NCBI GenBank assembly: GCA_038150265.1
Contig: JAYOTF010000015.1
Location: 26,614 to 71,172 of the forward strand
Source: Deltaproteobacteria bacterium
GTDB taxonomy: Bacteria; SAR324; NAC60-12
DNA length: 44,559 nt
Direction: 5' to 3'
The position numbers were made by a program, and so were the translations under genes. Shown piece after piece: positions 1 through 44,559 of this stretch. How positions within the stretch are numbered: the first letter of the stretch is position 1; every line of letters starts with the position of its first letter. The notes beneath the pieces are model-generated. The model ran no database searches, was not told the origin of the DNA, and was given only the letters and a program-made list of their open reading frames with translations.

Positions 1-34
1 AAAATTCTATCCCAAGCCATTTCTGAGCAAGCCT

Positions 35-637
35 ATGACTGAGAAGAAGAAGGCCACTGAGCAAACTCCTGAGCAAGCCGATCCGTCTGTTGACGCGGCG
101 GACCCTTCTGTGGAGTCCGAAGCGCCTGAAGCGGCTGCGGATGAAACCGGAGCCACCGAGGAAGCCACGGCTTCCGGAACTGCTGACGAAGACGACGTGC
201 AGCGCAAATTGGACGAGGTGCAGGGCCGCTACCAGTACCTGAACGCCGAATTTGAAAATTACAAGAAACGGATGGTCCGGGAAAATTCGGAGCGCTTGAA
301 GTACTCAAATGGAGACTTGATCAAGGAACTCCTTCCGAGTTTGGACAATCTGGAGCGTGCCATTGATCACGCCAAAAAGGAAGAATCCAGCCGTGAGAGC
401 ATGATTGAAGGGCTGGAAATGGTTTACAAAATGGCCCAGGAGTCCCTGGTCAAATTCGGAGTCGCCCGAATTGATGCATCCGGCCAGGTGTTCGATCCCA
501 ACCTGCACCAGGCTGTGGGCATGGTTGACGCCGGAGAGGTCCCAGAGAACCACGTTGCAGAGCAACTTCAAGCGGGCTACACCCTTTACGACCGTGTGCT
601 GCGGCCCTCCATGGTGAGGGTGGCGGGCAAGGCGTAA
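35..637 (+). CDS. grpE: Nucleotide exchange factor GrpE
   Basis: Acidic disordered N-terminus; motifs AEFENYKKR, LLPSLDNLERA, FDPNLHQAV, GYTLYDRVLRPSMV; directly upstream of dnaK. Confidence 0.97.
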   Translation: MTEKKKATEQTPEQADPSVDAADPSVESEAPEAAADETGATEEATASGTADEDDVQRKLDEVQGRYQYLNAEFENYKKRMVRENSERLKYSNGDLIKELLPSLDNLERAIDHAKKEESSRESMIEGLEMVYKMAQESLVKFGVARIDASGQVFDPNLHQAVGMVDAGEVPENHVAEQLQAGYTLYDRVLRPSMVRVAGKA

Positions 638-661
638 CCTCAATCAGACAAAAGGAGAACT

Positions 662-2587
662 ATGGGTAAAGTGATTGGCATCGACCTGGGAACCACCAAC
701 TCCTGTGTGTCGGTGATGGAAGGCGGTGACCCGAAGGTCATCCAAAACGCAGAAGGGGCCCGCACGACCCCGTCGATGGTTGCCTTCAACGACTCCGGAG
801 AACGCCTGGTGGGCCAGGTGGCCAAGCGCCAGGCCGTAACGAACCCGAACCGCACCATCTTTTCTGCCAAGCGCCTGATGGGACAGGCCATCAATTCGCA
901 GGAAGTGAAGCACACGGAGACGATTGTTCCGTACAAGATCGTGGAAGGCGCCGGCGGCAGTGCGTACATTGGGGTGGATGACAAGAAGTATTCGCCGCAG
1001 GAGATTTCCGCGTTTGTTCTGCAGAAGATGAAGCAGACCGCAGAGGAGTACCTCGGGGAAACGGTCACGGAAGCCGTGGTCACGGTTCCGGCCTACTTCA
1101 ACGACAGCCAGCGCCAGGCAACCAAAGACGCCGGCAAGATCGCCGGCCTGAACGTCCTCCGGATCATCAACGAGCCCACGGCGGCCGCAATGGCCTATGG
1201 CCTCGACAAGAAAAACGATGAGAAGATCGCCGTCTTCGACCTCGGAGGAGGAACGTTCGACATCTCCATTCTTGAGCTTGGGGAAGGCGTGTTTGACGTC
1301 AAGTCCACCAACGGCGACACCTTCCTGGGCGGAGATGACTTTGACAACCGCTTGATCGAGTTCCTGGCGGACGAGTTCAAGAAGGAACAGGGCATTGACC
1401 TCCGGCAAGACAAGATGGCTCTGCAGCGCCTCAAGGAAGCGGCGGAAAAGGCCAAGCACGAGCTGTCTTCCAGCTCTGAGACAGATGTCAACCTGCCGTT
1501 CATCACGGCGGATGCCAGTGGTCCGAAGCACCTGAACATCAAGATCACCCGGGCCAAGTTCGAGACCCTCGTGGCAGACCTCGTGGACCGCTGCCTGGAG
1601 CCGTGCCGCAAGGCCCTCAAGGATGCCGGTGTGACGGCTAATGACATTGATGAGGTGATCCTCGTCGGGGGCATGACCCGCATGCCGAAGGTCCAGCAGA
1701 TCGTCAAGGACTTCTTTGGCAAGGAGCCGAACAAGAGCGTCAACCCCGATGAAGTCGTTGCCATTGGCGCCGCCATTCAGGGCGGTGTCCTCAAGGGCGA
1801 CGTCAAGGACGTGCTCCTGCTGGACGTCACTCCGCTTTCGCTCGGCATCGAGACCCTCGGGGGCGTCATGACCAAGCTCATTGAGCGCAACACGACGATT
1901 CCGACGCGCAAGAGCCAGGTCTTCTCCACGGCTGCTGACAACCAACCTGCGGTCAGCATCCACGTGCTGCAGGGCGAGCGCGAGATGTCGACAGACAACA
2001 AGACGCTGGGACGCTTTGAGCTGGTGGGCATCCCTCCGGCACCGCGTGGGGTTCCGCAGATTGAGGTCACGTTCGACATTGACGCCAACGGCATTGTTCA
2101 TGTCACGGCGAAGGACCTCGGCACCGGCAAGGAGCAGCAGATCAAGATCACGTCCTCCAGCGGCCTCTCGGACGAGGAAATCGACAAGATGGTCCAGGAC
2201 GCAGAGAAGTTTGCTTCCGAAGACAAGACGAAGCGGGAAAAAGTGGAGCTGAAGAACCAGGCAGAGACCCTGATCTACAGCACCGAAAAGTCTCTGAGCG
2301 ACCTCGGAGACAAGGTTCCTGCCGACGACAAGGCGAAGATTGAGGCCACCAAGGAGCAGCTCCGCAAGAGCCTCGAGGGGGACAACATCGACGCCATCCG
2401 GAGCGACATGGAGGCCCTGACACAAGCCTCGCACAAGCTGGCGGAGATGGTGTACCAGAATCAGCAGGCAGGCGGCGGTGACGATGCCACTCCGGGGGCG
2501 GATGCCCAGGGGGGTGGTGACGAAGGTGCCAAGAAAAAGGACGATGAGGACATCGTCGATGCTGATTATGAAGAAGTAAAGAAGTAA
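662..2587 (+). CDS. dnaK: Chaperone DnaK (Hsp70)
   Basis: [35 protein letters not shown] and [15 protein letters not shown]; ends [17 protein letters not shown] upstream. Confidence 0.99.
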
Positions 2588-2592
2588 GCACG

Positions 2593-2619
2593 ACGCCCCC
2601 GGGAGCCTCTCGGGGGCGT
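2593..2619 (+). terminator. GC-rich hairpin between dnaK and dnaJ (mRNA stabiliser or weak terminator)
   Basis: ACGCCCCCG...CGGGGGCGT is a perfect 9-bp inverted repeat just after the dnaK stop; there is no U-tract. Confidence 0.55.
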
Positions 2620-2645
2620 ACACTGTAGAGATTCAGGAGAACCCC

Positions 2646-3782
2646 TTGGCCAAACGCGATTACTACGAAGTTCTAGGGCTTAGCAAAGGTGCCTCAAAGG
2701 AGGAGATCAAGAAGGCGTACCGCAAGGTCGCCATGAAGTATCATCCGGACCGCAACCCTGGAGACCAAGAGGCTGAGGACAAATTCAAGGAGGCGACCGA
2801 AGCCTTTGAGGTCCTGGGCGATGACGAAAAACGGAATCGCTACGACCAGTTTGGCCATGCCGGAACCGAAGGCATGGGCGGCGATTTCAGTGGCTTCAGC
2901 AACTTCGGTGGCGGGGGCGCCGGATTTGGCGACATCTTTGGGGACATCTTCGGCGAGTTCTTTGGCGGTGGCGGAGGTCCCGGAGGCGGCCGTCGGGCGT
3001 CGCGGGGCGAACGGGGCTCCGACCTGCAGTACAACCTGGAGGTCACTTTTGAAGAAGCAGCCTTTGGCGGAGCCCGGGAAATTGAAATCCCCCGGATGGA
3101 AACCTGCGACACCTGCAGCGGATTAGGCGCTCACTCACAGAGCGACATTGAAATCTGCTCCGACTGTGGCGGAAGCGGCCAGCAACGCATCCAGCAGGGC
3201 TTCTTCAGCGTGGTCACAACCTGCTCCACCTGTGGTGGACGTGGCAAGACCATCAAGAACGTCTGCAAGAGCTGCCGAGGGCGGGGACGGGTTCAGAAGA
3301 CCAAGCGCCTGCGCATCAACATCCCGGCTGGGGTCAACACCGGCTCTCGCATCAAGCTCACGGGAGAAGGGGAGCACGGCACCAACGGCGGCGGTAACGG
3401 CGACCTCTATGTGGTGCTGCGCGTCAAGGAGCACCCGGTCTTTGATCGCGATGGCTCCGACCTGTTCTGTGAGGTGCCGATCAGCTTCACGCAGGCAGCG
3501 CTGGGAACCGAGCTGGAGGTGCCCACGCTTGAGGGCAAGGCCAAGCTCAAGATTCCTGCAGGAACCCAGACGCACAAGATCTTCCGGCTCCGGAACCAGG
3601 GCATGCCCGAACTCCGAGGCGGCGGGCGGGGAGACCTGCTCTGCCGGGTGCTGGTGGAGACGCCCACCAACCTTTCGGCGCGGCAGCGGGAGCTGCTGGA
3701 AGAACTGGAGTCGGTGAGCAGCAGCGACGATCACCCCCTGCGGGACAAGTTCTTCAACGCCATTCGGGACCTCTTTTCCTGA
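2646..3782 (+). CDS. dnaJ: Chaperone DnaJ (TTG start)
   Basis: J-domain with HPD, G/F-rich region and four CxxCxGxG repeats; SD AGGAGA before the TTG. Confidence 0.99.
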
Positions 3783-3794
3783 CAGCTCCCGGAC

Positions 3795-4265
3795 TCAGGT
3801 CCGGGCCCCCTCCGGATGCCGGATCATCGCGTAGCGGGTCAACACGACCCCATCGCGCCGGCTCTGCTCCACGCATTCCACCTCAAACCCGTATCGCTCA
3901 AACAGCGGCTTCGAAAATTCGGAGGCTGCCACCGTGACGGCGTGTTTCGTGTCGGCTTGCTGCAGAAGCATTTCCAGCAAAGCGGTCCCCACTCCCTGTC
4001 GCATGAACTCAGGTGCCACAAACAGGGCCGAAAGGTGGTCTGGCGTCGCCAGCGCCCCAAAGCCCTGAAGGCGTCCAGAGGCGTCTTGTGCCACAAAGGT
4101 CTGGGCACCAGTCACCCAGTCGGCAAACTCCGCCTCGTTGGCAAAACGCGCCCACGCCGCGACCTGTTCCGGAGTGTAGGCCTGCGGGCCGGCGTGTTCG
4201 ATGGCACGGCGGTAGAGGGTCCGGAGCGCGTCCTGCTCTTCCGGTTGCATGGGACGAATGATCAC
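3795..4265 (-). CDS. GNAT-family N-acetyltransferase (YafP-like)
   Basis: Acetyl-CoA motif LFVAPEFMRQGVG and AS...KPLFERYGF; ATGA overlap with the dctM stop. Confidence 0.85.
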   Translation of the reverse strand: MIIRPMQPEEQDALRTLYRRAIEHAGPQAYTPEQVAAWARFANEAEFADWVTGAQTFVAQDASGRLQGFGALATPDHLSALFVAPEFMRQGVGTALLEMLLQQADTKHAVTVAASEFSKPLFERYGFEVECVEQSRRDGVVLTRYAMIRHPEGART

Positions 4266-5554
4266 CCCATTGCCTCGGGAATGACCAACACGAGCCAGGG
4301 CACAAAGACCAGAAGCGCCAGCCGAAACACGTCGGCCAGCAGGAAGGGCAACACGCCCCGGAAGATCGTCTGGGTTGAGACATCCGGAAGCACGGAGCGG
4401 AGGACGAAAACGTTCAGGCCAACCGGAGGCGTGATGAGGCTGATTTCGGTCACAACCACGACAATCACACCAAACCAGATGAGGTCAAAGCCCAAATCCG
4501 CGACCAGCGGGTAAAAGATCGGAACCGTCAGCAGGATCATGGAGAGGCTCTCCAGCACGGCTCCAAGGATCAGGTAGATCACGAGGATGAGCCCGATCAC
4601 GGCCAACGGGGCAAGCCCGGCATCCTGAACCCAGTCGGAAAGATCACTTGGGAGCCCAGCGATGTTGACAAAGTTGGAGAAGAGCAGGGCCCCAATGAGG
4701 ATGAAGAACATCATCGCTGTGGTGTGAGTGGACTCGACCAGTACTGAAAACAGCATCTTGCGGTTGAGCTTGCCCCGGAGCCAGGTGAATCCCAAGGCCC
4801 CGGAGGCGCCAATCCCTGCGGCTTCTGTGGGAGTGAAGACGCCCAGGTAAATGCCACCGATGACGAGGGCAAAGAGTGAGAGGATGCCCCAAACGCCTTT
4901 CAGGAGCCGAAAGCGCTCATTCATCGGCATTGGGGTCGCGCGTGGCCCCAACTCCGGTTTGAACCAGGTGACCCCCCACACCGCGGCCATGTAGCCCAGG
5001 ATGCCCAGGAGTCCCGGAAGGATCCCTGCTGCAAACAGCTTCCCAATGTCCTGCTGAGTCATGACGCCATAGAGCACCAGGATGACGCTGGGAGGAATGA
5101 GGATGCCCAGGGTGCCGCCGGCAGCAATCACTCCGGAGGCCAGGGAGTCGGCATAGCCGTACCGTCGCATGGAGGGCATGGTGACCTTGGCCATGGTGGC
5201 GGCGGTCGCAAGGGAACTGCCGCACACGGCGCTGAAGCCTCCGCAGGCCACGGCGGTCGCCATGGCGAGCCCACCCCGTCGGTGCCCGAGCCAGGCGTTG
5301 GAGGCGCCATAGAGTTCATCCGAAAGCCCGGCATGCGTCACCAGGTTCCCCATGAGGATGAAGAGGGGAACCACGGAGAGCCCATAATCCATCCCGGTTT
5401 CCAGCGTCACCTGAGCCACCATGGAAAACGCCGGGTCCCAGCCAATCATGAGCCCCAACCCCCCAAATCCGACCAGAGCCATCGAGAAGGCGATGGGCAC
5501 CCCGAGGAACATGATCGTCAGCAGAATCACAATGCCGGTTAACCAGAATTCGAT
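4262..5554 (-). CDS. dctM: TRAP transporter large permease DctM (probable non-canonical ATC start)
   Basis: Motifs GVPIAF, VPLFILMG, GTLGILIPPS, FTPTEAA and ITPPVGLN. Start placed at the in-frame ATC after AAAGGAGG; the ORF-track TTG at 5644 lies inside dctQ. Confidence 0.9.
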   Translation of the reverse strand: MEFWLTGIVILLTIMFLGVPIAFSMALVGFGGLGLMIGWDPAFSMVAQVTLETGMDYGLSVVPLFILMGNLVTHAGLSDELYGASNAWLGHRRGGLAMATAVACGGFSAVCGSSLATAATMAKVTMPSMRRYGYADSLASGVIAAGGTLGILIPPSVILVLYGVMTQQDIGKLFAAGILPGLLGILGYMAAVWGVTWFKPELGPRATPMPMNERFRLLKGVWGILSLFALVIGGIYLGVFTPTEAAGIGASGALGFTWLRGKLNRKMLFSVLVESTHTTAMMFFILIGALLFSNFVNIAGLPSDLSDWVQDAGLAPLAVIGLILVIYLILGAVLESLSMILLTVPIFYPLVADLGFDLIWFGVIVVVVTEISLITPPVGLNVFVLRSVLPDVSTQTIFRGVLPFLLADVFRLALLVFVPWLVLVIPEAMG

Positions 5555-27963: not shown

Positions 27964-29103
27964 ATGAATGCTGTTGACCTCCTTGAAAAGCTGGTCAGTT
28001 TTCCAACGGTTTCCCGTGACTCCAACCTGCCTCTGATTGAGTTTGTGGAAGGCTACCTGGCGGAGCAGGGCGTGAGCACCGTTCGGGTTCCGAATGATTC
28101 TGGCACCAAGGCCAATCTCTATGCGACCATTGGTCCGCAGGTCGAAGGAGGCGTGGTGCTGTCTGGGCACACGGATGTGGTGCCCGTGGAAGGACAGCCC
28201 TGGACGTCGGATCCGTTCAGCTTGACGAAGCGGGGCACCCGCTACTACGGTCGCGGAACCTGTGACATGAAGGCCTTCCTGGCGTTGGCGTTGGCGCTGG
28301 TTCCGGAGATGAAACCGCTGAAGAAGCCCATCCACCTGGCGCTTTCCTATGATGAGGAGATTGGCTGCCTCGGGGCTCCACGGATGATTGAGGAACTCCG
28401 GAGCCAGATTTCCACTCCGCAGGCGGTGATCGTGGGGGAGCCTTCCCTGATGCAGGCGGTGACGGCCCACAAGGGCATTGCCGCGTTCCGGACGACAGTG
28501 ACTGGGCATGAAGCGCATTCGAGCCTGGTGAATCAGGGCGTGAGCGCCGTCATGAATGCCGCCCGGCTCATCAACTGGCTCAGTGAGCGCGGAGAGCGCT
28601 TCCGGAGTGAAACGTCCACCAGCACCGGCTTTGATCCGCATCACACGACGGTGCACGTCGGCACAGTCCGGGGAGGCACGGCCGTGAACATCATCTCCCG
28701 GCACTGTGAGTTTGTCTGGGACGTCCGGACGGTTCCGGAAAACACAGCCCAGGAGGTTCTGGCGGAATTTGAGCAGTACTGCTCCCGCGAGGTCCTCCCG
28801 AAGATGCAAAACATCCACGCCGGCACCAGCATCCGCACCGAGATCCTGGCCGATACGCCTCCACTTCAGGAGGATCCGGATTCTCCGGCAACGCAGCTGG
28901 CCCTTCAGCTGACGGGGCGGACCCACACCTCGCGGGTGGCATATGCGGCAGAAGCGGGGCAGTTCCAGCAAGCGGGCTTTCCGGCCGTCATCTGTGGTCC
29001 GGGCTCCATTGAGCAGGCCCACCAGCCTGATGAGTTCATTGAGGAGGACCAACTGGTTGCCGGAGAGGCGTTTCTGCGTCAGCTGATCACCACCCTTTCC
29101 TGA
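27964..29103 (+). CDS. argE: Acetylornithine deacetylase
   Basis: LSGHTDVVP, GRGTCDMK, SYDEEIGCLG, GEPS, AHSS and CGPGSIEQAHQPDEF. Confidence 0.88.
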   Translation: MNAVDLLEKLVSFPTVSRDSNLPLIEFVEGYLAEQGVSTVRVPNDSGTKANLYATIGPQVEGGVVLSGHTDVVPVEGQPWTSDPFSLTKRGTRYYGRGTCDMKAFLALALALVPEMKPLKKPIHLALSYDEEIGCLGAPRMIEELRSQISTPQAVIVGEPSLMQAVTAHKGIAAFRTTVTGHEAHSSLVNQGVSAVMNAARLINWLSERGERFRSETSTSTGFDPHHTTVHVGTVRGGTAVNIISRHCEFVWDVRTVPENTAQEVLAEFEQYCSREVLPKMQNIHAGTSIRTEILADTPPLQEDPDSPATQLALQLTGRTHTSRVAYAAEAGQFQQAGFPAVICGPGSIEQAHQPDEFIEEDQLVAGEAFLRQLITTLS

Positions 29104-32082: not shown

Positions 32083-32087
32083 GCTCC

Positions 32088-33950: not shown

Positions 33951-36155
33951 TCAGTTGGAACAGGTGAGTGGGGCGATGGTCGCTGCCGGATTAGGAATCT
34001 TCCCCATGGCAAGGAAGCAAGCCGCCTGAAGCTGGCCCTGCTGAGTGGCTGTTGTGGCTCCATCCAGCAGGAATCCGTGCCCGGGCGTCCCTCCCGTATA
34101 GTTTGCCGTTTTTAAAGTCCAGCGAGTTCGCGGATTGCTGGAATTGTCGGTGGCGTTATCTCCGTCCTCCAGGTTGGTCACGCCCATTGCCTGAGCGAGC
34201 AGAGCCGTGTTGTTGTTCGGAACCACCGTGTCGCCTTCCATCTCCTGGATCAGCACCTGTGCCGGGTATGTTGTATTGGCCCTGTAAAGCGGATCCACCG
34301 AGCCAGCAAACGTGGCGTGAGAAGCCAATAAATCGACACCAAGCAGTGTGGTGTTCAGCGCATATTCTCCGGCCTTGGTGCTGGTGTCATAGCCATAAGT
34401 CTCGGCGACTTTGTCCCTGATGACACTTCCAAACGCCCCGTTGAGAATGATGTCACTCAGGTCACCTCCAGGGACGTTGAGGACAAACTTGTTTGCTGGA
34501 AATGTACTAGGGCCGACAGCTGCGAGATTCGACCCGATGATTCCTCCGAGGGAGACCCCCAAAAAGTTGATGGTGCTTGTGGTAGGTTGCATGCCAACGG
34601 CAGCGATCATCTCCGGATTGGCTTGCAGCAACACGTTCAAGCGAGTCAAGTCTGCCTGAGTCTGGATCATGTACCCCACTGTGAGGGTGGGGTTGTCCGG
34701 ACGCATGAAGAGGCCCCCGGAGTCGGCATAGCTCTGCGCCATCGTGTTTTCAAGAGTCCCATTGGCGTTTGCATCTTCATAGGCCCGCTCGCCATGGCCC
34801 CAGATGTCAACGGCAACGGTGGTCATACCATAACCAGCGAGGGTGTTGGCAACGGCGAAGACAGTGTCTTTGTTGCTGGTGATGCCATGCTGGTAGATCA
34901 CGACTTGGGTGGAGGAGGCAGGTTTGAAGACCCAGACTCCGATCTTTCCCGTCATGCCGGTGACGCTATTGGGACAGTCACTCCCCGGGCTTGCCGCTCG
35001 GCCTGCAAGATCAAGCGTCCAGGTCGTCGCGCTCGTTGAGTTATCCAAAAAATTCAGACAAGGCACATAACCCTTGTACACCTTGTCAATGTTGTCCATG
35101 GGGACCGTGAGACCGGCTGCGGTCAGAACGGTCTGCAACGTGGCCTTCAAATCGGCTCCTGCCACACTGGTGTTGTCGGTAGCTGGTGTAGCAGCGACTC
35201 CTTGCGCGTAGGCCCCGAAGGTGGTGGCACTCTCCCAAACGGGATCAGCTTGAAAAGCAGTGGTGGTGTTACCAATGTTTCCTGCCATCGCAGTCAGTAG
35301 TGACTGAGTCGCTGTTTGGATTGCAGAACTGGCCGGCTCTTCCGTGGTGAAGGTGTAGAGAATGGCGAGATCGGTGTAATCCGAAATCACACTGTTGGCT
35401 TGGAGAGCCGCAACAAGACCGCCGTTGTACTGACTCCGAACGCCTTCCAGAGCCGTCGCGCTGGCCAGTCCCCCATCGCTTTCAGCCTTGTACTTCTCAC
35501 GGATGAGGGTGTTGACGATCTTGCCGTTTTCCACGATCTTGTTGGGCCCCATCAGAAGCTCTCCGAGGATATCGGCCTCAAGGTCATCTCCGTTGGCGTC
35601 TGTCAGGGCCTTCTTGATGGCGACCACATAGGTCTTGTTACCAGAGAAGGTGCTGCTTCCCGGAACCAGAACGAGGTCATGATTGGAGTCCTGGTAAACG
35701 GCCTTGAAGGTGCCACCGGTTACGCTGCCTCCCGCGAAGTCTTGGGTGGGCCAGGGACGAACGATTGCGCTAGCGTTATCGCTAGGGAAAATCAGGATGT
35801 TTTGGGCGTACTTGGCCATGTTGGTGGCATTGATGCTGCCATTGTCCTGGTACAGGCTGGGCAGCGCCCCACTGAAGGGAATGCGCAACGGCATGGAGGT
35901 TGAGGTCCCCGTCAATTCCGAAGCACCAGCGCTGCTAAGCGATTGGTTGACGGTGTTTAGGATGAGGTCGTTGGGTTGCGGAACCCGTCCAGCGTCTGTG
36001 CTGAACTGGGCAACGGTGACCGAAGACGTCTCTTCTCCTGCCGTGATGGAGGGAGTGGGGTCGGAGCTGGCCGAATCGAGGATCTGGTCGGCACATCCTC
36101 CCAAACCCAGCAGAAGAGTCAGGAAAAAGGATATTTGCCAATGACGGTGCTTCAT
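33951..36155 (-). CDS. Lipoprotein lipase/phospholipase (Pla-1/Cef/VolA-like alpha/beta hydrolase)
   Basis: Lipobox LGG-C; IYQHGIT, DIWGHG, GVSLGG (Ser), GDTVVPN (Asp) and GHGFLL (His); co-transcribed with the FadL gene. Confidence 0.8.
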   Translation of the reverse strand: MKHRHWQISFFLTLLLGLGGCADQILDSASSDPTPSITAGEETSSVTVAQFSTDAGRVPQPNDLILNTVNQSLSSAGASELTGTSTSMPLRIPFSGALPSLYQDNGSINATNMAKYAQNILIFPSDNASAIVRPWPTQDFAGGSVTGGTFKAVYQDSNHDLVLVPGSSTFSGNKTYVVAIKKALTDANGDDLEADILGELLMGPNKIVENGKIVNTLIREKYKAESDGGLASATALEGVRSQYNGGLVAALQANSVISDYTDLAILYTFTTEEPASSAIQTATQSLLTAMAGNIGNTTTAFQADPVWESATTFGAYAQGVAATPATDNTSVAGADLKATLQTVLTAAGLTVPMDNIDKVYKGYVPCLNFLDNSTSATTWTLDLAGRAASPGSDCPNSVTGMTGKIGVWVFKPASSTQVVIYQHGITSNKDTVFAVANTLAGYGMTTVAVDIWGHGERAYEDANANGTLENTMAQSYADSGGLFMRPDNPTLTVGYMIQTQADLTRLNVLLQANPEMIAAVGMQPTTSTINFLGVSLGGIIGSNLAAVGPSTFPANKFVLNVPGGDLSDIILNGAFGSVIRDKVAETYGYDTSTKAGEYALNTTLLGVDLLASHATFAGSVDPLYRANTTYPAQVLIQEMEGDTVVPNNNTALLAQAMGVTNLEDGDNATDNSSNPRTRWTLKTANYTGGTPGHGFLLDGATTATQQGQLQAACFLAMGKIPNPAATIAPLTCSN

Positions 36156-36233
36156 GGGGAACCTCCTTGAAGTGAAAGACAGACAAGCCCTTGCCTCCTC
36201 CGGAGAAGCGGCAAAGTCTGCGGGAATGATGCA

Positions 36234-36265
36234 TCAATGCTGAGTGCATTGAAACGGCTTGTCAA
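36234..36265 (-). promoter_or_regulatory. Putative promoter and palindromic operator of the lipase-fadL operon
   Basis: Minus-strand TTGACA (36265-36260), 17 nt, CAGCAT; overlapped by TCAATGC-N5-GCATTGA (36234-36252). Confidence 0.5.
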
Positions 36266-36334
36266 CCGCTTTTTATGAAGGAACCGGAGGTGATTTGAGG
36301 GGAGGGCGGCCGGAGTTTCGAGACGGGCTGGTGT

Positions 36335-37132
36335 TCAGGGGCGTGGCTCCGGACGTTGCTGGCGGATCCAGTCGTGCCAGGCGTCGAGCCCCTCGCCGGT
36401 TCGGGCAGATACTCGGAAAATTTGCAGGTCCGGATTCACCTGCCGGGCAAAGGCTTCGCACTGTTCCGGGTCAAAATCGACATACGGAAGGAGGTCGACC
36501 TTATTGAGGAGCATCACGGAGGCGGCCTGGAACATGTGCGGGTACTTGAGGGGCTTGTCTTCGCCTTCAGTGACGGACAGGATGGCGACCTTGGCCGCCT
36601 CTCCCAAGTCAAACAGCGCCGGGCAGACGAGGTTCCCGACGTTTTCCACAAAGAGCACCGATGCTTCCGGAAGCGCCAGCTGCTCGACCCCCTGCCAGAC
36701 CATCTGGGCCTCCAGGTGGCAGCCGGTCCCGGTGTTGACCTGAACCGCGGGGCATCCCGTCTGGTGAATGCGCTCAGCGTCATGCTGCGTGGCCTGATCC
36801 CCTTCAATGACAGCAAGGGGGAACTCCGGACGCAGCGTCTGCAGCGTGGACTCAAGCAGCGCCGTTTTTCCGGAACCCGGCGAGCTGACGAGGTTCAGAG
36901 CGAGAATGCGGTGCTGAGCAAACCAGTCTCGGTTGCGTCGTGCAAGTTGGTCATTGAAGGCCAGCAGGTTCTCTTCCAGGTGCAGGACCTCATGCTGGGC
37001 GCCCGCTGTGGATTCCGGAGGCGGTAGCGGAGCGGGCGCTTCCGGGGTGAGCTGAGAAACGGCTCCCAGGCGTTGGGGGAGGTGGGTGAGGGTGACAACG
37101 GCTCCAGAGGAGCAACCGCAGGTGGTACACAT
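36335..37132 (-). CDS. hypB: Hydrogenase nickel-insertion GTPase HypB
   Basis: N-terminal [39 protein letters not shown] and NKVD; TGATG overlap with hypA. Confidence 0.96.
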
Positions 37133-37461
37133 CAGCGCAACTCGATTTCCTGAAGAAACAATTCGGTGCCGGCTTCCACGGTGGTTCGGAAGGAACCGCA
37201 GGCACACGACTCATAAAGGGTAGGAGCCCTGAACACGGCTCCGCAGTCCAGGCACTTCAGCTGACCCGGAGGCTCTTCAATTTCCAGAGACGCTCCTTCC
37301 AGTGCGGTTCCGGACGTACACGCGTCAAAACAGAAGCGGACGGCGTCGGCCAGTACGCCACTCAGCTGCCCAATCTGCAGCTTCACCCGTGCTACCGGAC
37401 GCCCTTGAGCGTGGGTGGCCGCCGAGGCGACGAGTTGCTCCGTGATGGCCAACTCGTGCAT
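37132..37461 (-). CDS. hypA: Hydrogenase nickel chaperone HypA
   Basis: MHELAI N-terminus; CLDC and CACGS zinc ligands. Confidence 0.95.
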
Positions 37462-37463
37462 GG

Positions 37464-38480
37464 CTAGCAGATGCGGGGGAGTTGGTCGCCCTGCAGAACG
37501 TCCAGCATCCGCTCGGCGCCAAAGGGCGTCTCCAGCACCACGGTGTTCCGGGGCATGGCTTCCACCCGTCCGACACGGCAGGCGTTTCGGCCTTCCGGAA
37601 CCTGACGCATGGCTTCCAGCACGTCTTCCGCCACCGCTTCCGGAACCACCGCCACCAGCAGGCCTTCATTGGCCAGGTAGAGCGGATCGAGGCCCAGGAG
37701 TTCGCAGACGCCTCGGACGGTTTCCCGGATCGGCAGTTGATCTTCCTCCAAACGGAGGCAAACGTGCGAGTCGCGTGCAAACTCGTTGAGCACCGTCGCC
37801 ACTCCGCCTCGGGTGGCATCTCGCAGGCAGTGCAGGTCCAGAGACGCAGCCAGCATCGCCTGCACCAGCGTGTGCAGGGGCTGGCAGTCGCTCGTTACGG
37901 GAACCTCCAGGTGCAGCTCTCCCCGGGCATCCACAATCGCTGCGCCATGATCGCCAATGAAGCCGCTGACCAGCACCACGTCTCCGGGCTGTGCCTGATA
38001 AGACGCAATGGTGAGGGAATCCGGGACCAGGCCAATGCCAGAGGTATTGATGAAGAGCCGGTCGGCCGCACCGCGTTCCACGACCTTGGTGTCTCCCGTG
38101 ACAATGCGGACCCCGGCGCGTTCTGCAGCTGCAGCCATGGACTGCACAACCTGCTCCAGCACGGCCCACTCCAGGCCCTCCTCCAGGATCAGGGCGCAGC
38201 TGAGCGCCAGCGGCGTTGCGCCACCAACGGCAAGGTCGTTGACGGTGCCGTTGACGGCGAGGGTGCCAATGTCGCCTCCGGGAAAGAAGAGGGGGTTGAC
38301 AACAAAGCTGTCGGTGGTGAAGGCGACCCGGTGCCCCGGAGGAACCGTCAGCTGTGCCTGGTCCTGCAGCCCTGGTGCTTCCGGGCGGCCGAAGGCGTTC
38401 AGCAGGACCTGGTCGATCAGCTCCTGCGTGGCGCGACCGCCGCTGCCGTGTGCGAGGGTGATCGTGGAGGAGCGAGTCAT
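37464..38480 (-). CDS. hypE: Hydrogenase maturation protein HypE
   Basis: HGSGG, FTTDSFVV, GTVNDL, GDTKVV, DATRGG and C-terminal PRIC; ATGA overlap with hypD. Confidence 0.97.
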   Translation of the reverse strand: MTRSSTITLAHGSGGRATQELIDQVLLNAFGRPEAPGLQDQAQLTVPPGHRVAFTTDSFVVNPLFFPGGDIGTLAVNGTVNDLAVGGATPLALSCALILEEGLEWAVLEQVVQSMAAAAERAGVRIVTGDTKVVERGAADRLFINTSGIGLVPDSLTIASYQAQPGDVVLVSGFIGDHGAAIVDARGELHLEVPVTSDCQPLHTLVQAMLAASLDLHCLRDATRGGVATVLNEFARDSHVCLRLEEDQLPIRETVRGVCELLGLDPLYLANEGLLVAVVPEAVAEDVLEAMRQVPEGRNACRVGRVEAMPRNTVVLETPFGAERMLDVLQGDQLPRIC

Positions 38481-39607
38481 GAGGCCACCGAGGTGTGCTG
38501 GCGGGAGCGATACTGGTAGTAGGCGGCACAGGCGCCTTCCGAGGAAACCATCAGGGCGCCCAGCGGCTGTTCCGGAGTGCAGCGGGTGCCAAACATGCGG
38601 CACTGAGGGGGCTTGAGGTGCCCCCGGAGGACGTCACCACACTGGCAGCCCTCGTCGTCGTCGCTCGGTTCAGTTGCCAGGGTGAAGCGTTTTTCTGCGT
38701 CAAAGGCCGCAAAGGCATCCCGTAACTGAACCCCGGAATGGGGAATGGTTCCCAGCCCCCGCCAGGCGCAGGCTTCTTTAAGCTCAAACACCTGGTCCAC
38801 GGCTCGCTGTGCGGCCGGGTTTCCGGCATCCGGAACCACGCGCCGGTACTGGTTTTCCACCGTGCACCGTCCCTCCTGCAACTGCTGCAGAATCATCCAG
38901 ATCGACTGCAGCACATCCAGCGGTTCAAACCCGGAGACAACGAGCGGCTTCCGGAATTCCCGGGCAATGAAGTCGTACGGCGAGAGGCCAATGATCATGC
39001 TGACGTGTCCGGGACCAATGAAGGCGTCAATGCGCTGGTCCGGATCCTCCAGAACGGCCCGCAGCGTCGCCGGAATCGTGATGTGCTGGCAGAGGACCGA
39101 AAAGTTGGAGATGCCCTCCTGGGCCGCCTGCAGCAGCGTGAGGGCGGTGCTGGGCATGGTGGTTTCAAACCCGAGGGCAAAGAACACCACCTGCTGGTTG
39201 GGGTGCTGACGCGCCAGGCTCAGGGCATCTTCCGGCGAGTAGACCATGCGGACCTCGGCTCCGTCCGCTCGGGACTGGAGGAGGCTCTTCCGAGAGCCCG
39301 GAACCCGCAGGGCGTCCCCAAACGTGGCCAGCATCACATCCGGCTGCTCAGCCAGGGCAATGGCGGCATCCACGCGCTCTCGGGGCAGGACGCACACGGG
39401 GCAGCCCGGTACATGAATCAACTCCAGCCCCTCCGGAAGCAACTGGTCGAGCCCAAACTTGAAGATGGTGTGGGTGTGCCCGCCACAGACTTCCATCAGC
39501 CGGATCGGAGACGTTGCCGAGGCGCCGAGCTGCGCAACCTGAGTGGCAATGCTCTGACGCAGGGCCCGGACTTTTTCCGGGTCTCGGAATTCGGTCACAA
39601 ACTGCAT
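38477..39607 (-). CDS. hypD: Hydrogenase maturation protein HypD
   Basis: CGGHTH, (V)PGCPVC, GFETT, PGHVS and MVSSEGACAAYY. Confidence 0.96.
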   Translation of the reverse strand: MQFVTEFRDPEKVRALRQSIATQVAQLGASATSPIRLMEVCGGHTHTIFKFGLDQLLPEGLELIHVPGCPVCVLPRERVDAAIALAEQPDVMLATFGDALRVPGSRKSLLQSRADGAEVRMVYSPEDALSLARQHPNQQVVFFALGFETTMPSTALTLLQAAQEGISNFSVLCQHITIPATLRAVLEDPDQRIDAFIGPGHVSMIIGLSPYDFIAREFRKPLVVSGFEPLDVLQSIWMILQQLQEGRCTVENQYRRVVPDAGNPAAQRAVDQVFELKEACAWRGLGTIPHSGVQLRDAFAAFDAEKRFTLATEPSDDDEGCQCGDVLRGHLKPPQCRMFGTRCTPEQPLGALMVSSEGACAAYYQYRSRQHTSVAS

Positions 39608-39608
39608 G

Positions 39609-39872
39609 TTACCCGGCGGTGGCGTGTTCCTGAAGCTCTCCCAGGGCACTGAGGAGCTTCAGGGTTTGGTAGGCCTCGTCTTCGTCAATGCGACTGAGGG
39701 CAAATCCGACATGGACGAGGACCCAGGTTCCCACCGCCGCTTCCATTTCTGCGGCGTCCTCGACGACACAGGCGAGGTTGACGACCCGCTGGACGCCACC
39801 GACGTTGACCTTCGCCTGGCGCCGGTCGGCATCTTCGACCGCCATGACCTGTCCCGGAATTCCTAAACACAT
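39609..39872 (-). CDS. hypC: Hydrogenase maturation chaperone HypC
   Basis: MCLGIPG N-terminus and WVLVHVGFAL. Confidence 0.97.
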   Translation of the reverse strand: MCLGIPGQVMAVEDADRRQAKVNVGGVQRVVNLACVVEDAAEMEAAVGTWVLVHVGFALSRIDEDEAYQTLKLLSALGELQEHATAG

Positions 39873-39877
39873 GGGCT

Positions 39878-42217
39878 TCAGTTTCTTTGAGAAGAGGAGG
39901 TGGAGGCGGTGCTTCGGGCCGCAGCAATCAGGGCTTGCCCAAAGGCGATGCCGCCATCATTAGGAGGAATCTGCTGGGGCCGCAGGACCTCAAAGCCGGA
40001 CTGCTGCAGAGCGTTCTCAAGCAGCGTCAACAGCGTCCTATTTTGGAACACCCCGCCTGCCAGCGCAACCGTATTGGTACGGATAGACGGATGAAGCGCC
40101 TGGGCCTTGCGGAGTCCCGAGACCCAGGCCTCGGCCAAACCACGATGAAACGCGGTGGCCATGGCCGGGAGCGGTGTGCCGTGCCGGAGGTCCTGCAGGA
40201 GCGCTTCCCAGAAGGGACGCGGGTCCAGTTCCAGCAGTCCGGAAGTGGGGTCGGAGCGCCAGTGAAAGGGGTAACGGGTCGGCAGGGTGAGGTCCACCTG
40301 AGCCTCCAGCAGCTGAGCCGCCTGCCCCTCGAAGGTGAGGCGGTCCGGCCCGAGTCCCAGCGCCGCAGCAACAGCATCAAACCAGCGACCACAGGAGCTT
40401 GAGCGCGGGCTGTTGCGGGCAAGAGCGGTGAGCGTCGTGACGGGTTTTGTCTGCAGGTGCCGCACAAGGAGCAGATCCGGAAACTGCTGCTGAAGCGCTT
40501 CCCACCCAAAGCACGCGTCGAGGTGCGCCAGGGTGTTGCGCCAGGGCTCGCGCATGGCCTGGTTCCCACCGATGAGGGGGAGCGGCTGGAGACGCCCAAC
40601 GCGCTCCAGGTGCTGGTAAGTGCCCCAGCCGAGTTCCCCTCCCCAGAAGGTGCCATCGGTGCCGAAGCCCAACCCGTCCAGCAGCAGCGCCCAAACCGGA
40701 GGCGTGTCTCGCGGCAACCCGTGTTCGCCGAGGCAGGCCGCCAGGTGGGCGTGGTGGTGCTGCACCCCGAGCGTCGGAAGGCCCTGCTCAGTGGCCCAGG
40801 CTTCTCCAAAGCGGGTGGAGGCGTAGTCCGGATGAAGGTCCGTCACCACCTGCGTCGGGCGGAGGGAGTGAAGCTGAAGGAAGTGTGCGATGAGGGTTTG
40901 GTACGCCTGAAGGGTCCGGAACTCGTGGAGGTCCCCGATGTGTGGAGCAAGCATGGCCTGCCCTTCCTGAACGAGGCAGAAGGTGCTCTTCAGGTCGGCA
41001 CCGCACGCCAGGAGCGGGGGCGTGTTGGCGAATCCGGGAGGCAGCGGGCGGGCGTCCGGCGCCAGGCCTCGGGCGCGTCGCAGCACCTGCGGTCCGGAAG
41101 GCAGCACCCGGAGGACCGAGTCGTCACAGCGATGGACGATGGGGCGGTTGTGCCCGAGCAGCGCATCGGCAACGTGGTTCAGCTGCTCCCGGACCTCCGC
41201 CTCGTCCATGCACTGAGGGGCGCCAGAGCGGTTGGCGGAGGTCATCACCAGCACCTCCGGAGCCGTTTGCAGGAGGAGGTGGTGCAGAGGTGTGTAGGGC
41301 AGCATCCCCCCGAGAGTCGACTGCCCGGGAGCCAGCCCCTCCGGTAGTGGGGATGCCGGGAGTGGGTCCAGAAGCACAATCGGTGCGGCGGGATGCTTCA
41401 GCCAGGCGGCTTCTTCGGCGCTCACCTGAGCAAACCGCCGCAGGGTGGCTTCATCCTTTGCCATGAGGGCGAAGGGCTTGTGAGGCCGGTGCTTGCGGGT
41501 CCGGAGGCGCTCCACGACGTCCGGCTGCTGGGCATCACAGGCAAGGTGAAAGCCGCCGATTCCCTTCAGGGCCACAATGGCTCCCTGCCGCAGCAAGGCC
41601 GCGGTGGCGTCCAGCGGATCGTCCGGAAGCGCGTGGGTGGGGGCATTCCACACCTCAAGCGTGAGCGAGGGACCACACTGCGGGCAGGCAATGGGCTGAG
41701 CATGGAAGCGCCGGTCGGCCGGGTCTGCGAACTCCTGCGCACACGCGGGGCAGAGCGGGAACGTTGCCATGCTCGTCCGGGAGCGGTCGTAGGGAACGTC
41801 ATGGAGGATGCTGTAGCGGGGGCCACACTGAGTGCAGTTGGTGAGGGCATACCGGAAGCGCCGGTTGGACGCGTCCTGCACCTCCCGGAGGCAGTCGGGA
41901 CAGCTGGCGAGGTCGGGCAGCACCTGCAGGCCGGAACCCTCCAGCGCGCTGGGGACGATCCGGAAGGCCGCTGGACCCGCGCCAGGAAGTGGCTCGGTGG
42001 TGATGCTTTCGACGTGAGCGGCTTCCGGAAGCGCGGCGTTCAGCTCAGCAGGGAAGGCGTCAAGGGCGGCTTCCGGACCCCACAGCTCGACGGTGGCGCC
42101 GGCGCGGTCGTTGTACACCTGACCCCGGAGGCCCTGCTGCTGGGCCAGGCGCCACGCGCTGGGGCGAAACCCCACCCCCTGAACTCGTCCACGAAACCGA
42201 AACCGCCGCCCGGGCAT
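39878..42217 (-). CDS. hypF: Carbamoyltransferase HypF
   Basis: Acylphosphatase GRVQGVGFRP, zinc fingers (CPDC/CTQC, CPAC/CPQC), KGIGGFHL, QHHHAH and PPNDGGIAFGQ; SD GGAGG before the ATG at 42217. Confidence 0.97.
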   Translation of the reverse strand: MPGRRFRFRGRVQGVGFRPSAWRLAQQQGLRGQVYNDRAGATVELWGPEAALDAFPAELNAALPEAAHVESITTEPLPGAGPAAFRIVPSALEGSGLQVLPDLASCPDCLREVQDASNRRFRYALTNCTQCGPRYSILHDVPYDRSRTSMATFPLCPACAQEFADPADRRFHAQPIACPQCGPSLTLEVWNAPTHALPDDPLDATAALLRQGAIVALKGIGGFHLACDAQQPDVVERLRTRKHRPHKPFALMAKDEATLRRFAQVSAEEAAWLKHPAAPIVLLDPLPASPLPEGLAPGQSTLGGMLPYTPLHHLLLQTAPEVLVMTSANRSGAPQCMDEAEVREQLNHVADALLGHNRPIVHRCDDSVLRVLPSGPQVLRRARGLAPDARPLPPGFANTPPLLACGADLKSTFCLVQEGQAMLAPHIGDLHEFRTLQAYQTLIAHFLQLHSLRPTQVVTDLHPDYASTRFGEAWATEQGLPTLGVQHHHAHLAACLGEHGLPRDTPPVWALLLDGLGFGTDGTFWGGELGWGTYQHLERVGRLQPLPLIGGNQAMREPWRNTLAHLDACFGWEALQQQFPDLLLVRHLQTKPVTTLTALARNSPRSSSCGRWFDAVAAALGLGPDRLTFEGQAAQLLEAQVDLTLPTRYPFHWRSDPTSGLLELDPRPFWEALLQDLRHGTPLPAMATAFHRGLAEAWVSGLRKAQALHPSIRTNTVALAGGVFQNRTLLTLLENALQQSGFEVLRPQQIPPNDGGIAFGQALIAAARSTASTSSSQRN

Positions 42218-42370
42218 GCTCCTCCACCTGAAAAAACGGAAAGGCCCTACGGTAGGGCAAGATGAGCGGAGGTGCAATCCGGTTCCACACCCAACGGACT
42301 TGCAAGTTCCTGTCACTCCGGGGACTGTATCCGTTGCCTGTCAACCGTTCCCTTCACGCCGATTCCTTCT

Positions 42371-43726
42371 ATGTCCACTCCTGTGTTTTCACGCCTTCAG
42401 CACGCCCTGCAGACTCCTGTTGATGTTGCCAGCCTTGTCCTCCTCCGGGTGGCATTTGGGCTGATTCTGACGTGGGAGGTGATCCGCTTCTTCCTCTACA
42501 ACTGGATTGAGGACCTCTACATTCAGCAGCGTTTTCACTTCAAGTATGAGTGGTTTCAGTGGGTGAGTGACCTTCCGGATGCCGGAATGTATGCCGTGTT
42601 TGTTGCCATTGGGGTGTCGAGTTTCCTGATTGCCCTCGGGCTCTTCTATCGCTTGGCAACGGTGGTCTTCTTTGTGGGCTACACGTATGTGTTCTTGATC
42701 GACCGCGCCTACTACAACAACCACTTCTACCTGATTGCCATCTTCGGGTTTTTGCTGATTCTGGTGCCGCTGAATCGGGCCGGGTCGCTGGACGTCATCT
42801 GGCGCAAGCAGCCCGCGAGTGAGCAGCTTCCCGCCTTCTGGCTCTGGACCGTCCGCTTTCCCATGACGCTGGCGTACGTCTATGGGGCGATTGCGAAGAT
42901 GGATCCGGAGTGGCTCAGCGGACGGGCGACACTGGCGTTGATTGGCAAGGGCCTGGAAGGCACGGCGTGGGAGCAGGTGATGCACCTGGGCTGGGTGCCG
43001 GTCTTCTACGCGTGGTCCGGAATGCTGTTTGACCTGCTGGTCCCCTTTGCGGTGCTGTGGAAGCCGACCCGCCTGCCAGCGCTCCTGGCGGCGCTGCTCT
43101 TTCACACCCACAACTACTTCGTCTTTGACATTGGCATCTTTCCGATGCTCTCGCTGGCGCTGACCCTGCTGTACCTGCCTCCGGATTTTCCGCGTCGGTT
43201 GCTTCCGGAAGGGGTCCGGCAGCGATTGAGTCAGTGGTATGAGGCGCGGGTGACGCCCCAAGCCGCAGGACCGGTGCGACCGTGGGTGATGGCGGTGGTC
43301 GGACTCTTTGTGGCGTTTCACCTGATCTTCCCCTTCCGGCACTTTTTGTATCCGGGGTGGACGCTGTGGCATGAAGAGGGGCACCTGTTTGCGTGGCGGA
43401 TGATGCTCCGGCAGAAGCAGATTGACGTCCGCTTTGACCTCCAGCATCCGCAGACCAGGGAGGTGCGCTACGCCCCACTGGAAGACTACCTGAACCCCTC
43501 GCAAATCCGGACCTTTGCCGGGAATCCGAACATGGTCCTGCAGTTTGCGCATCACCTGGCGGACCTGGTTCAGGCAAATGCCGGGTTCACGCCCATTGTC
43601 ACCGCCCAGATCAACGTCTCCCTCAATGGCCACCCTGCGGTGCCGATGGTCAATCCGCAGCTCAACCTGGCTTCCATTCCTCCGTTTGAACCTGCTTACC
43701 GCTGGGTGACGCCGGTGCTGCCCTGA
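42371..43726 (+). CDS. HTTM-domain, vitamin K-dependent gamma-carboxylase-like membrane protein
   Basis: HFKYEWFQWV, YNNHFYL, YGAIAKMDPEWLSG, FHTHN, IGIFP and EGHLFAWRMML resemble conserved GGCX motifs; start inferred. Confidence 0.85.
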   Translation: MSTPVFSRLQHALQTPVDVASLVLLRVAFGLILTWEVIRFFLYNWIEDLYIQQRFHFKYEWFQWVSDLPDAGMYAVFVAIGVSSFLIALGLFYRLATVVFFVGYTYVFLIDRAYYNNHFYLIAIFGFLLILVPLNRAGSLDVIWRKQPASEQLPAFWLWTVRFPMTLAYVYGAIAKMDPEWLSGRATLALIGKGLEGTAWEQVMHLGWVPVFYAWSGMLFDLLVPFAVLWKPTRLPALLAALLFHTHNYFVFDIGIFPMLSLALTLLYLPPDFPRRLLPEGVRQRLSQWYEARVTPQAAGPVRPWVMAVVGLFVAFHLIFPFRHFLYPGWTLWHEEGHLFAWRMMLRQKQIDVRFDLQHPQTREVRYAPLEDYLNPSQIRTFAGNPNMVLQFAHHLADLVQANAGFTPIVTAQINVSLNGHPAVPMVNPQLNLASIPPFEPAYRWVTPVLP

Positions 43727-44121
43727 CCCCTCTCACATCACATGCCCCGCCTGGAACCCGGGCTGCAGTCTCTTCTGCACAGTCGGGTTCCTCTGAAGCC
43801 TCACCTCCTCTCGCGCAGGCGGGTATCCAGAAAAGTGAGACGGGTGGCGGCTCTTCCGGGAGAGCGAGGGAGGATCTAAAAGGTGAGGCGGCTGGTAGCC
43901 TTGAAGACTCGCCAACTCAAGCGCTTCAGTGGTGCAATCCGTTTCAGGGGATTGCCCTGGGAGCACGCAGAGGAGGGTGGCTGGTTTGGCCACTCGTTGC
44001 TCAAGGTCTGAGGGAACGTGGGGGGAAGGCTGTGGAAGAAGCCGGCGAAGCGCAGGAAAGCGCCTTCCTGGGAAAGTCAGCAGCGGAGGCGCGCGGAGAA
44101 CTGGTGGCGCCCAGGAGCCTC

Positions 44122-44164
44122 AAACAAAAAAAGCGAGGCACCTCCATGCGGAGGGCCTCGCTTT
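44122..44164 (-). terminator. Rho-independent terminator of the porin gene
   Basis: Stem AAAGCGAGGC...GCCTCGCTTT followed on the minus strand by a T-run. Confidence 0.85.
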
Positions 44165-44203
44165 AAGCGAAGTGGAGCAGATTGCTCCGTCTTATGGCTT
44201 CAA

Positions 44204-44559
44204 TTAGAAGCTGTAGGACATTTTTACTTCGATGTCGGTCTGGCTCGCGCCATCAGCTGCAGCGGTGGTATTGGCGTCGGAATTCGAGGAAGATGCCGAA
44301 CCGTAGCCAACGCCCAGTGCAACTGGACCAACGGTGGTGCCATAGCCCAACTCGAAGCCGGTCTCGGTTCCTGCGTTGGTTCCGTCGTTGAAGGTGGCGC
44401 TGCTGTAGTTGAAGACGACGCTGTCGTCCCCACCCAGAGCAACAGTTGCTCCCAGTTCAAAAGCAGTGCTCTTAAGGTCTGCTTCACCTTCGCTGGTGGT
44501 CGTTGCAGTCGTTGCATAGGTCAGGAACGGCTTGATTCCATCCATGTCCATGCCCACAC
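44204..44559 (-). CDS. Outer-membrane beta-barrel/porin, 3' fragment (truncated by the window edge)
   Basis: Amphipathic beta strands with Thr/Ala/Asp loops; C-terminal Bam signal VKMSYSF; strong terminator downstream. Confidence 0.75.
   Translation of the reverse strand, partial: VGMDMDGIKPFLTYATTATTTSEGEADLKSTAFELGATVALGGDDSVVFNYSSATFNDGTNAGTETGFELGYGTTVGPVALGVGYGSASSSNSDANTTAAADGASQTDIEVKMSYSF

Follow-up and report, generated by a model that had tools for sequence, protein, structure and literature searches.

The window analysed here is a stretch of 44,559 nucleotides from contig JAYOTF010000015.1 of a SAR324 bacterium. It carries, among other genes, dnaK, a group of ribosomal protein genes, an M20 peptidase gene and a set of hyp genes, and the palindromic hexamer TCCGGA recurs in it both within and between genes. 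A first-pass annotation of this DNA had estimated about 120 copies where about 15 were expected and had proposed a highly iterated palindrome (HIP) resembling HIP1 of cyanobacteria. Counting gave 122 exact copies (2.7 per kb), whereas 100 dinucleotide-preserving shuffles of the window contained 16.6 on average (standard deviation 4.4, maximum 27), and none reached 122. The enrichment was not limited to the window: the source genome (G000; 3.39 Mb in 87 contigs, GC content 61.3%, 97.8% complete) contained 9,711 copies, one per 349 bp, which made TCCGGA its commonest hexamer; the second-ranked hexamer was little more than half as frequent.

Genes of the source genome were taken from 2,730 models of our own, based on open reading frames (ORFs) and covering 87% of the sequence. 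The null model for coding DNA consisted of 30 shuffles of synonymous codons within each gene, by which the protein, its dipeptides and the per-gene codon usage are kept. Against this null, coding DNA contained 8,629 copies versus 2,076 ± 32 expected, giving an observed/expected (O/E) ratio of 4.16 (3.9, 3.2 and 5.1 in the three reading frames), and TCCGGA was the top outlier among all hexamers. DNA lying fully between genes contained 1,085 copies versus 143 expected (7.6-fold). The earlier statement that the sites fall in all three frames and between genes was thus borne out. With Markov models, the O/E ratio of TCCGGA decreased from 8.67 at zero order to 7.57, 3.95, 2.39 and 1.22 at orders 1 to 4; the next palindromic hexamer by O/E was CTGCAG with 3.15. 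At order 4, 7,959 copies were expected and 1,752 were still in excess; the ratio is low there because the words from which the null derives, TCCGG and CCGGA, are each enriched 3.1-fold, so that the null takes up most of the signal. One could argue from this low value, and from TCC, GGA, CCG and CGG being common codons, that base, dinucleotide or codon usage alone generates the word and that no dedicated process is involved. This view is refuted by the 4.2-fold excess over the synonymous shuffle, the 7.6-fold intergenic excess and the rank among hexamers, as well as by three results described below: equal enrichment in genomes of 43% and 61% GC, its absence from a genus of the same family and the helical phasing of the copies. 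We give it virtually no weight.

Two other features of hexamer usage were recorded in the source genome. The most enriched words after TCCGGA under the synonymous shuffle were CATTGA/TCAATG (2.59-fold) and CAATGA/TCATTG (2.3-fold). Words containing TA were extremely avoided (O/E of 0.05 for CTAG, 0.07 for TATA and 0.20 for TTAA), and many TA- or TTAA-containing hexamers at codon junctions occurred at 0.03 to 0.08 of the synonymous-shuffle expectation.

Occupancy of permitted positions

A position was defined as permitted where the protein could carry TCCGGA, i.e. at Ser-Gly, at Arg preceded by Phe, Leu, Ile or Val and followed by a codon starting with A, or at Pro-Asp/Glu preceded by an amino acid with a T-ending codon. 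The source genome used 8,627 of its 20,944 permitted positions (41.2%), where codon usage predicts approximately 1,874. In the 1,828 genes offering five or more permitted positions, occupancy was exactly binomial (chi-squared per degree of freedom, 1.015), and none of 1,599 genes tested escaped or exceeded the mean significantly after Bonferroni correction, ruling out escape genes or islands. A dependence on expression or codon bias is likewise ruled out by the flat occupancy of 0.39 to 0.44 along the main codon-usage axes. The gaps between sites were Poisson-like (median 238 bp versus 237.6 bp expected, coefficient of variation 0.98), and 10-kb intervals contained 29.0 sites on average with a variance of 33.2. 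Operator arrays were also discarded, as no cluster of at least five sites in 120 bp was found versus 4.3 expected. In a profile from which genes shorter than 900 bp were left out, site density dipped only at translation starts.

The window behaved like the rest of the genome. In its genes, 111 of 266 permitted positions (41.7%) were filled, the remaining sites being intergenic or at gene edges, and no gene deviated from binomial occupancy. The hyp genes (hypB, hypD, hypC and hypF, 36199..42077) carry 26 sites, with 6/10, 5/11 and 11/25 permitted positions filled in hypB, hypD and hypF, respectively. On the plus strand, dnaK (662..2587) has three sites at its seven permitted positions, and the genes for ribosomal proteins L11, L1, L10 and L7/L12 (22292..24554) have three of five filled. 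An ORF of 2.2 kb and 734 codons on the minus strand (33951..36155) has two of seven. The first-pass annotation had contrasted a dense hyp operon with about two sites each in dnaK and in this 2.2-kb gene. Per kilobase the difference is real, with three rather than two sites in dnaK, but it marks no special regime: occupancy is ordinary throughout, and the unequal densities arise entirely because the proteins differ in their number of permitted positions, of which DnaK and the ribosomal proteins offer few. The label of the 2.2-kb gene as a lipase gained no support, since the ORF had no Pfam match at E ≤ 1e-5. Beside the hyp genes, an ORF on the plus strand (42272-43726) encodes a protein with an HTTM and a vitamin-K-dependent gamma-carboxylase lumenal domain.

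Distribution among relatives and turnover of copies

The family was surveyed in 32 genomes from 12 genera, each at least 85% complete, using the ratio of TCCGGA to the reversed word AGGCCT as control. The trait was consistent within each genus. Strong enrichment was found in g1 (three genomes, ratio 3.9-5.9), g11 (nine, 4.8-32), g12 (three, 14-30), g4 (three, 3.0-8.4), g6 (two, about 4.6) and g3 (one, 3.8). It was weak in g10 and g7 (one and two genomes, 1.8-2.6) and absent from g2 (five genomes, 0.8-1.2) and from g5, g8 and g9 (one genome each, 0.9-1.4). In the source genome and in the majority of the genera of the family, TCCGGA is a true highly iterated palindrome. The first-pass proposal of a HIP1-like word therefore stands with regard to its genome-wide spread, its excess beyond codon and dipeptide nulls, its restriction to certain lineages and the outer-letter bias of its variants described below.

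Four relatives were sampled further, namely G002 (880 kb, GC 59.9%) and G001 (400 kb, GC 60.3%) from g1, G018 (662 kb, GC 42.7%) from g11 and G013 (793 kb, GC 56.6%) from g12. Their zero-order O/E ratios were 7.1, 7.8, 8.7 and 7.6, respectively. In the source genome, G002, G013 and G018, T was preferred at position -1 (1.5- to 1.7-fold) and G was deficient there, so that the word is weakly extended to T-TCCGGA-A. Both the 7.1- to 8.7-fold enrichment and this preference were alike across 43-61% GC. A uniform odds shift of approximately 7-fold that hardly responds to base composition could reflect a fixed biochemical bias, as from repair or drive, or weak uniform selection. Among one-letter variants, CCCGGA/TCCGGG was one of the most enriched in all four genomes tested and ranked first in three; in G018 it came second, behind GCCGGA/TCCGGC. 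Variants at the inner letters scored below outer-letter variants in the source genome. CCGG cores without the T/A flanks were depleted to 0.48-0.74 in the GC-rich genomes. The contributions of the flanks were near-multiplicative (cooperativity 0.97-2.04), as expected of additive contacts of a symmetric dimer. Short-range clustering was seen in G018 (loci L069-L127), with 259 pairs at 14-118 bp versus 154 expected, whereas the GC-rich genomes were Poisson-like.

Three genomes of a sister family avoided the word, with TCCGGA/AGGCCT counts of 133/987 in G023, 40/182 in G021 and 37/151 in G026. Each of the three genomes also contained 16-18 PF01555-like matches. Together these findings suggest a TCCGGA-specific restriction activity in this sister family. 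If, as is probable, such restriction circulates in the order, TCCGGA might serve the enriched genera as a self-marker for a defence or DNA-end-processing system, comparable to Chi and opposite to restriction, which would treat TCCGGA-poor DNA as foreign. Uniform, expression-independent occupancy would suit a mark of the whole genome. No candidate for the reading system was found, Chi-type signals are oriented whereas TCCGGA is palindromic, and the helical phasing would be left unexplained; we consider the self-marker improbable.

Turnover was followed in 713 orthologue pairs of the source genome and G002 (coverage at least 0.7, identity at least 60%; 248,538 aligned codons). At 4,301 positions permitted in both, the word was present in both genomes at 995, in the source genome only at 818, in G002 only at 496 and in neither at 1,992. 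Hence 995 of 1,813 sites of the source genome (55%) were shared with G002, compared with 20% filled where the source genome was empty; these values stand without a matched control palindrome. In a smaller set from the contig of the window, 73 of 157 sites were shared, at a four-fold-site identity of 52%. Because sharing was partial, individual copies turn over.

Helical phasing between copies

The distances between copies in the source genome showed a periodicity of 10.5 bp with a normalised power of 25.1, equal to that of the codon-period peak (25.5). The peak was absent for the control words CTGCAG and CAGCAG. Within genes, the 10.5-bp signal was seen in all three classes of distance modulo 3, and in 40 pooled synonymous shuffles its power fell from 17.3 to 1.5. 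Its relative amplitude was approximately 0.29 out to 116 bp, and its phase was stable to approximately 330 bp. The permitted positions themselves were barely periodic (amplitude 0.036). An origin from alpha-helix periodicity is excluded by the presence of the signal in all modulo-3 classes, its loss on shuffling and the near-aperiodic permitted positions. Repeated elements are excluded as well, since the phasing was unchanged after 226 sites within repeated 20-mers had been dropped. At 14-118 bp from a neighbouring site, the chance that a permitted position was occupied was 0.50 in phase with the neighbour and 0.33 out of phase. In the window, a pair of sites in the M20 peptidase gene (28724..28739), 10 bp apart from start to start, illustrates the preferred spacing of one turn.

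Three of the four sampled relatives were phased; in none of them did any of 3,000 permutations attain the observed signal. G002 (amplitude 0.34, peaks at 10.5k + 9.8) had the same phase as the source genome, and so had G018 (amplitude 0.65, peaks at 10.5k + 10.3), from which alone phasing in genus g11 is known. In G013 (amplitude 0.39) the peaks were at 10.5k + 5.5, i.e. on the opposite face of the helix. Split halves of the samples agreed in phase for all three genomes (+5.3 and +5.7 for the halves of G013), and among the 384 pair segments of G013, only 46 had any 14-mer in common with another. In G001 the amplitude was 0.18 and the phase not significant (647 of 3,000 permutations). Phasing is therefore not needed for enrichment, as G001 is fully enriched; from the phase map of the relatives it follows that enrichment and phasing are separable and that the phase is a property of the lineage.

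No phasing relative to TCCGGA was found for WW, SS or A-tracts in four genomes (amplitudes ≤0.014, the noise floor), and CG was unphased as well. Only the variants NCCGGN were phased relative to TCCGGA, weakly and with the same phase. The phasing is thus a word-specific effect at the level of the DNA, uncoupled from A-tracts. The A-tracts themselves showed a weak self-periodicity (2-5%), peaking at 11.5 bp in the source genome and at 10.5-10.6 bp in G013 and G018.

These results bear on intrinsic DNA mechanics as an explanation, according to which TCCGGA would be a bendable or A-philic word that encodes curvature or supercoiling where other bacteria use A-tracts. The period does equal the helical repeat, and prokaryotic genomes commonly show A-tracts at a period of 10-11 bp, as stated in the available portions of PMC3940949, PMC3431218 and PMC4132750. 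Cross-phasing with A-tracts, WW or SS was lacking even in the A-tract-rich, AT-richer G018, and both the opposite phase in g12 and the undetectable phase of G001 are hard to derive from physics that all DNA shares. This explanation accordingly retains very little probability. Helical phasing, which the first-pass annotation did not foresee, is the property that constrains the mechanism most.

Candidate genes, a putative two-site protein and known systems

The first-pass annotation had proposed a methylation- and repair-driven process that creates and maintains TCCGGA, with an orphan methyltransferase or a Vsr gene and depleted near-sites as its traces. Profile searches of the 97.8% complete source genome found no C5 methyltransferase (PF00145), no Vsr (PF03852) and no PF02384. 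C5 methyltransferases were also absent from G015 and from G001, G013 and G018, which with the source genome are the most enriched; they occurred in some enriched and some non-enriched genomes, including the non-enriched G009 and G010, and did not track the trait in 31 genomes. DUF559, which has a Vsr-like fold, occurred in 7 of the 32 genomes, all of them outside g1, g12 and g4, and showed no association with the trait. The transition neighbours of the word were not clearly depleted relative to the synonymous shuffle (1.25 for TCTGGA/TCCAGA and 0.92 for TTCGGA/TCCGAA), so a footprint of Vsr-type repair, in which the deamination-product words would be depleted, was not obtained.

Two genes of the PF01555 type were found in the source genome. 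One lies on contig C45 (locus L001 35-2217), where an RVT_1 reverse transcriptase gene is directly followed by that of a DNA methyltransferase with an SPPY motif; the pair looks like a mobile or defence module. Its methyltransferase had an orthologue only in G001 (71% identity) and a fragment in G002, and did not track the trait. The other, a single-copy amino-methyltransferase gene on contig C51 (locus L002 2-1387), encodes the motifs DPFMGGGT and SPPY behind a long N-terminal repeat rich in Arg, Asp and Glu, and is followed by a TerB-like gene. It is vertically inherited across the order, being present in 25 of 31 genomes, among them the non-enriched G003, G014, G006 and G010 and the depleted G023, and was not found in the enriched G018 and G011; no link to enrichment appeared among the 31 genomes. 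Its best matches were weak and mixed, comprising DNA N4-cytosine methyltransferases in the PDB and RNA m2G-type families (UPF0020, TIGR01177), and by these matches it is possibly an RNA enzyme.

The model that Elhai put forward for HIP1 would translate into an orphan methyltransferase that marks TCCGGA or its CCGG core, a methyl-directed or very-short-patch-like repair that converts near-sites into the word, and phasing that arises through a second bound site. It has points in its favour: one-off variants are biased to the outer letters, as an excerpt of Elhai 2015 (PMC4390886) reports for HIP1, the near-constant O/E over different GC contents suggests a biochemical bias, CCGG cores without T/A flanks are depleted, and the vertically inherited C51 enzyme exists as a candidate. 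Set against these are the gene survey and the undepleted neighbours described above, with C45 confined to a single close relative and C51 shared by non-enriched and depleted genomes and perhaps directed at RNA. A repair drive is thus unlikely, and the methylation and repair mechanism raised in the first-pass annotation finds no backing here.

The same annotation had named uptake or recombination as a second possibility. TCCGGA would then be a self-recognition signal spread by molecular drive, like uptake sequences and, by a recent proposal, HIP1, with an uptake or recombination protein that prefers fragments bearing suitably phased copies. ComEC was present in 31/31 genomes and DprA in 30/32 irrespective of enrichment, and a PilC-like gene lies within the window. 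Word-capable dipeptides were over-represented in the source genome (1.65 for PE versus 0.82 for EP, 1.40 for SG versus 1.04 for GS; no outside control), a peptide skew that an excerpt of Findlay and Redfield (PMC2817400) gives as a feature of uptake sequences. Amino-acid divergence between the source genome and G002 was 28.2% at occupied and 26.8% at unoccupied positions, with no sign of recent word-driven amino-acid change; similar conservation is described for uptake sequences in the same excerpt. The even spread and turnover of the copies would also fit, and HIP1 has recently been linked to transformation (10.1101/2024.09.10.611283, PMC13756078; seen as extracts). The distribution of ComEC and DprA does not separate enriched from non-enriched genera. 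Matches to HHH_3 (PF12836) in enriched genomes lay in Tex-like ORFs of 760-920 amino acids, none of ComEA size, and the one small, ComEA-sized match was in the non-enriched G010. The competence genes ComEC, HHH_3/ComEA and DprA showed no link to the trait. A 6-mer furthermore discriminates only approximately 8-fold. To our knowledge, no uptake signal is helically phased between its copies. We regard an uptake signal as rather doubtful.

With a probability of about 0.45, we favour a putative two-site TCCGGA-binding protein whose role is most likely in chromosome architecture. A weak pressure, equal on all genes and on intergenic DNA, would hold the word at a uniform statistical equilibrium, at which approximately 41% of permitted positions are filled, corresponding to an odds shift of approximately 7-fold over codon usage, while single copies come and go. 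This pressure would sense neighbours, filling approximately 50% of positions at whole 10.5-bp turns and approximately 33% half a turn off, with the order inverted in g12. The putative sequence-specific protein may sit on the palindrome as a symmetric dimer and may engage two copies at once, via short DNA loops or side-by-side contacts; it would act as a chromosome-organising 'reader' with a different geometry in different genera. Such a protein is favoured because the geometry of loops or contacts can set a phase, and shared DNA physics does not easily give opposite phases. We infer the protein nature of the agent, its binding to two sites and a function in chromosome architecture in preference to repair or uptake; methylation-linked repair or an uptake/recombination drive may nonetheless be what this protein does. 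In a more specific form, TCCGGA would be the genome-wide docking word of a chromosome-organising protein that bridges or loops pairs of copies, code and reader having co-evolved towards the same face in g1 and g11 and the opposite face in g12. We put this form forward tentatively, as possible and on balance doubtful.

Several results weigh against the two-site protein. The search for a reader yielded no protein, and no histone fold turned up. No nuclease fold of the CCGG family (Bse634I, NgoMIV) or of EcoRII-C was detected either, which is weak evidence as the control genomes were silent too. The congener G001, with its O/E of 7.8, lacked significant phasing in the 400 kb sampled. Retention in G002 was alike for sites with an in-phase (173/323) and an out-of-phase neighbour (121/228, p = 0.93), in a comparison with power only for differences of approximately 10 points. 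A fixed biochemical bias would account for the near-equal O/E of 7-9 over very different GC contents no less well than selection. Finally, every gene-based figure depends on our ORF-based gene models.

The puzzle of highly iterated palindromes has been open since HIP1 was found in cyanobacteria, and here an unrelated lineage has evolved its own palindrome, several properties of which restrict the possible mechanisms: occupancy is exactly binomial and independent of expression, single copies turn over, and the phasing is word-specific, with a phase that depends on the genus. The natural contrasts between enriched and non-enriched genera, between the same and the opposite face, and with G001, enriched but with no detectable phasing, offer a route to the responsible gene. 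Translation is not what determines approximately 8,600 synonymous codon choices of one genome, a result relevant to codon-usage models, to k-mer binning of metagenomes and to gene design in these organisms. If the docking-word form were true, a sequence-specific bacterial chromatin system would be written into thousands of synonymous codon choices.

Among known systems, very-short-patch repair by Dcm/Vsr enriches CCWGG. It resembles the present case in that a site-specific process changes how often a short CC..GG palindrome occurs. It differs in that C5 methyltransferase and Vsr were not found here, the T:G product words are not clearly depleted and the effect is much larger. TCCGGA is the recognition sequence of BspEI, Kpn2I and AccIII, and type IIE/IIF enzymes of the CCGG family bind two copies, loop the DNA and depend on helical phase. 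These two-site enzymes share the 6-bp palindrome with a CCGG core; unlike the present case, restriction usually leads to avoidance, as in the three sister-family genomes, and no such fold was detected here (nor in the controls).

DNA uptake sequences (DUS) of Neisseria and uptake signal sequences (USS) of Pasteurellaceae likewise occur in thousands of evenly spread copies, accumulated within genes with a peptide skew, with turnover and family 'dialects', as described in part of PMC2817400. Unlike TCCGGA they are 9-12 bp long, non-palindromic and far more enriched, and competence genes do not track the trait here.

The nearest relatives are HIP1 (GCGATCGC) and the alternate HIPs of cyanobacteria. 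Portions of Elhai 2015 (PMC4390886) and Xu et al. 2018 (PMC5861425) describe GC-rich palindromes that are hyper-abundant in coding and non-coding DNA beyond codon effects, lineage-specific with losses on branches, biased to outer-letter variants and apparently selected for their distribution rather than as single copies, all of which TCCGGA shares. HIPs are there tied to cognate methyltransferases (PMC4390886), and HIP1 is described as being under selection with a periodicity of 10-90 kb (PMC5861425); for TCCGGA, only short-range spacing was analysed and the period is 10.5 bp. The text of Elhai 2015 contains neither 'TCCGGA' nor 'helical', and that of Xu et al. 2018 does not contain 'helical'; judged by titles and the beginnings of abstracts, no publication describing a bacterial genome-wide enrichment of TCCGGA was found. 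TCCGGA is a 6-mer and not an 8-mer, approximately three times denser (1 per 349 bp versus approximately 1 per kb), and its host is not a cyanobacterium. It is a variant of the HIP kind for which the sole membership feature testable at the gene level, a cognate methyltransferase, was not found. In its phasing it comes closest to the 'structural code' of A-tracts at 10-11 bp, which in the available portions of PMC3940949 and PMC4132750 is likewise a genome-wide phasing at the helical period that lasts for one to a few hundred bp; unlike that code, the TCCGGA signal consists of a single hexamer, is uncoupled from A-tracts and differs in phase between genera.

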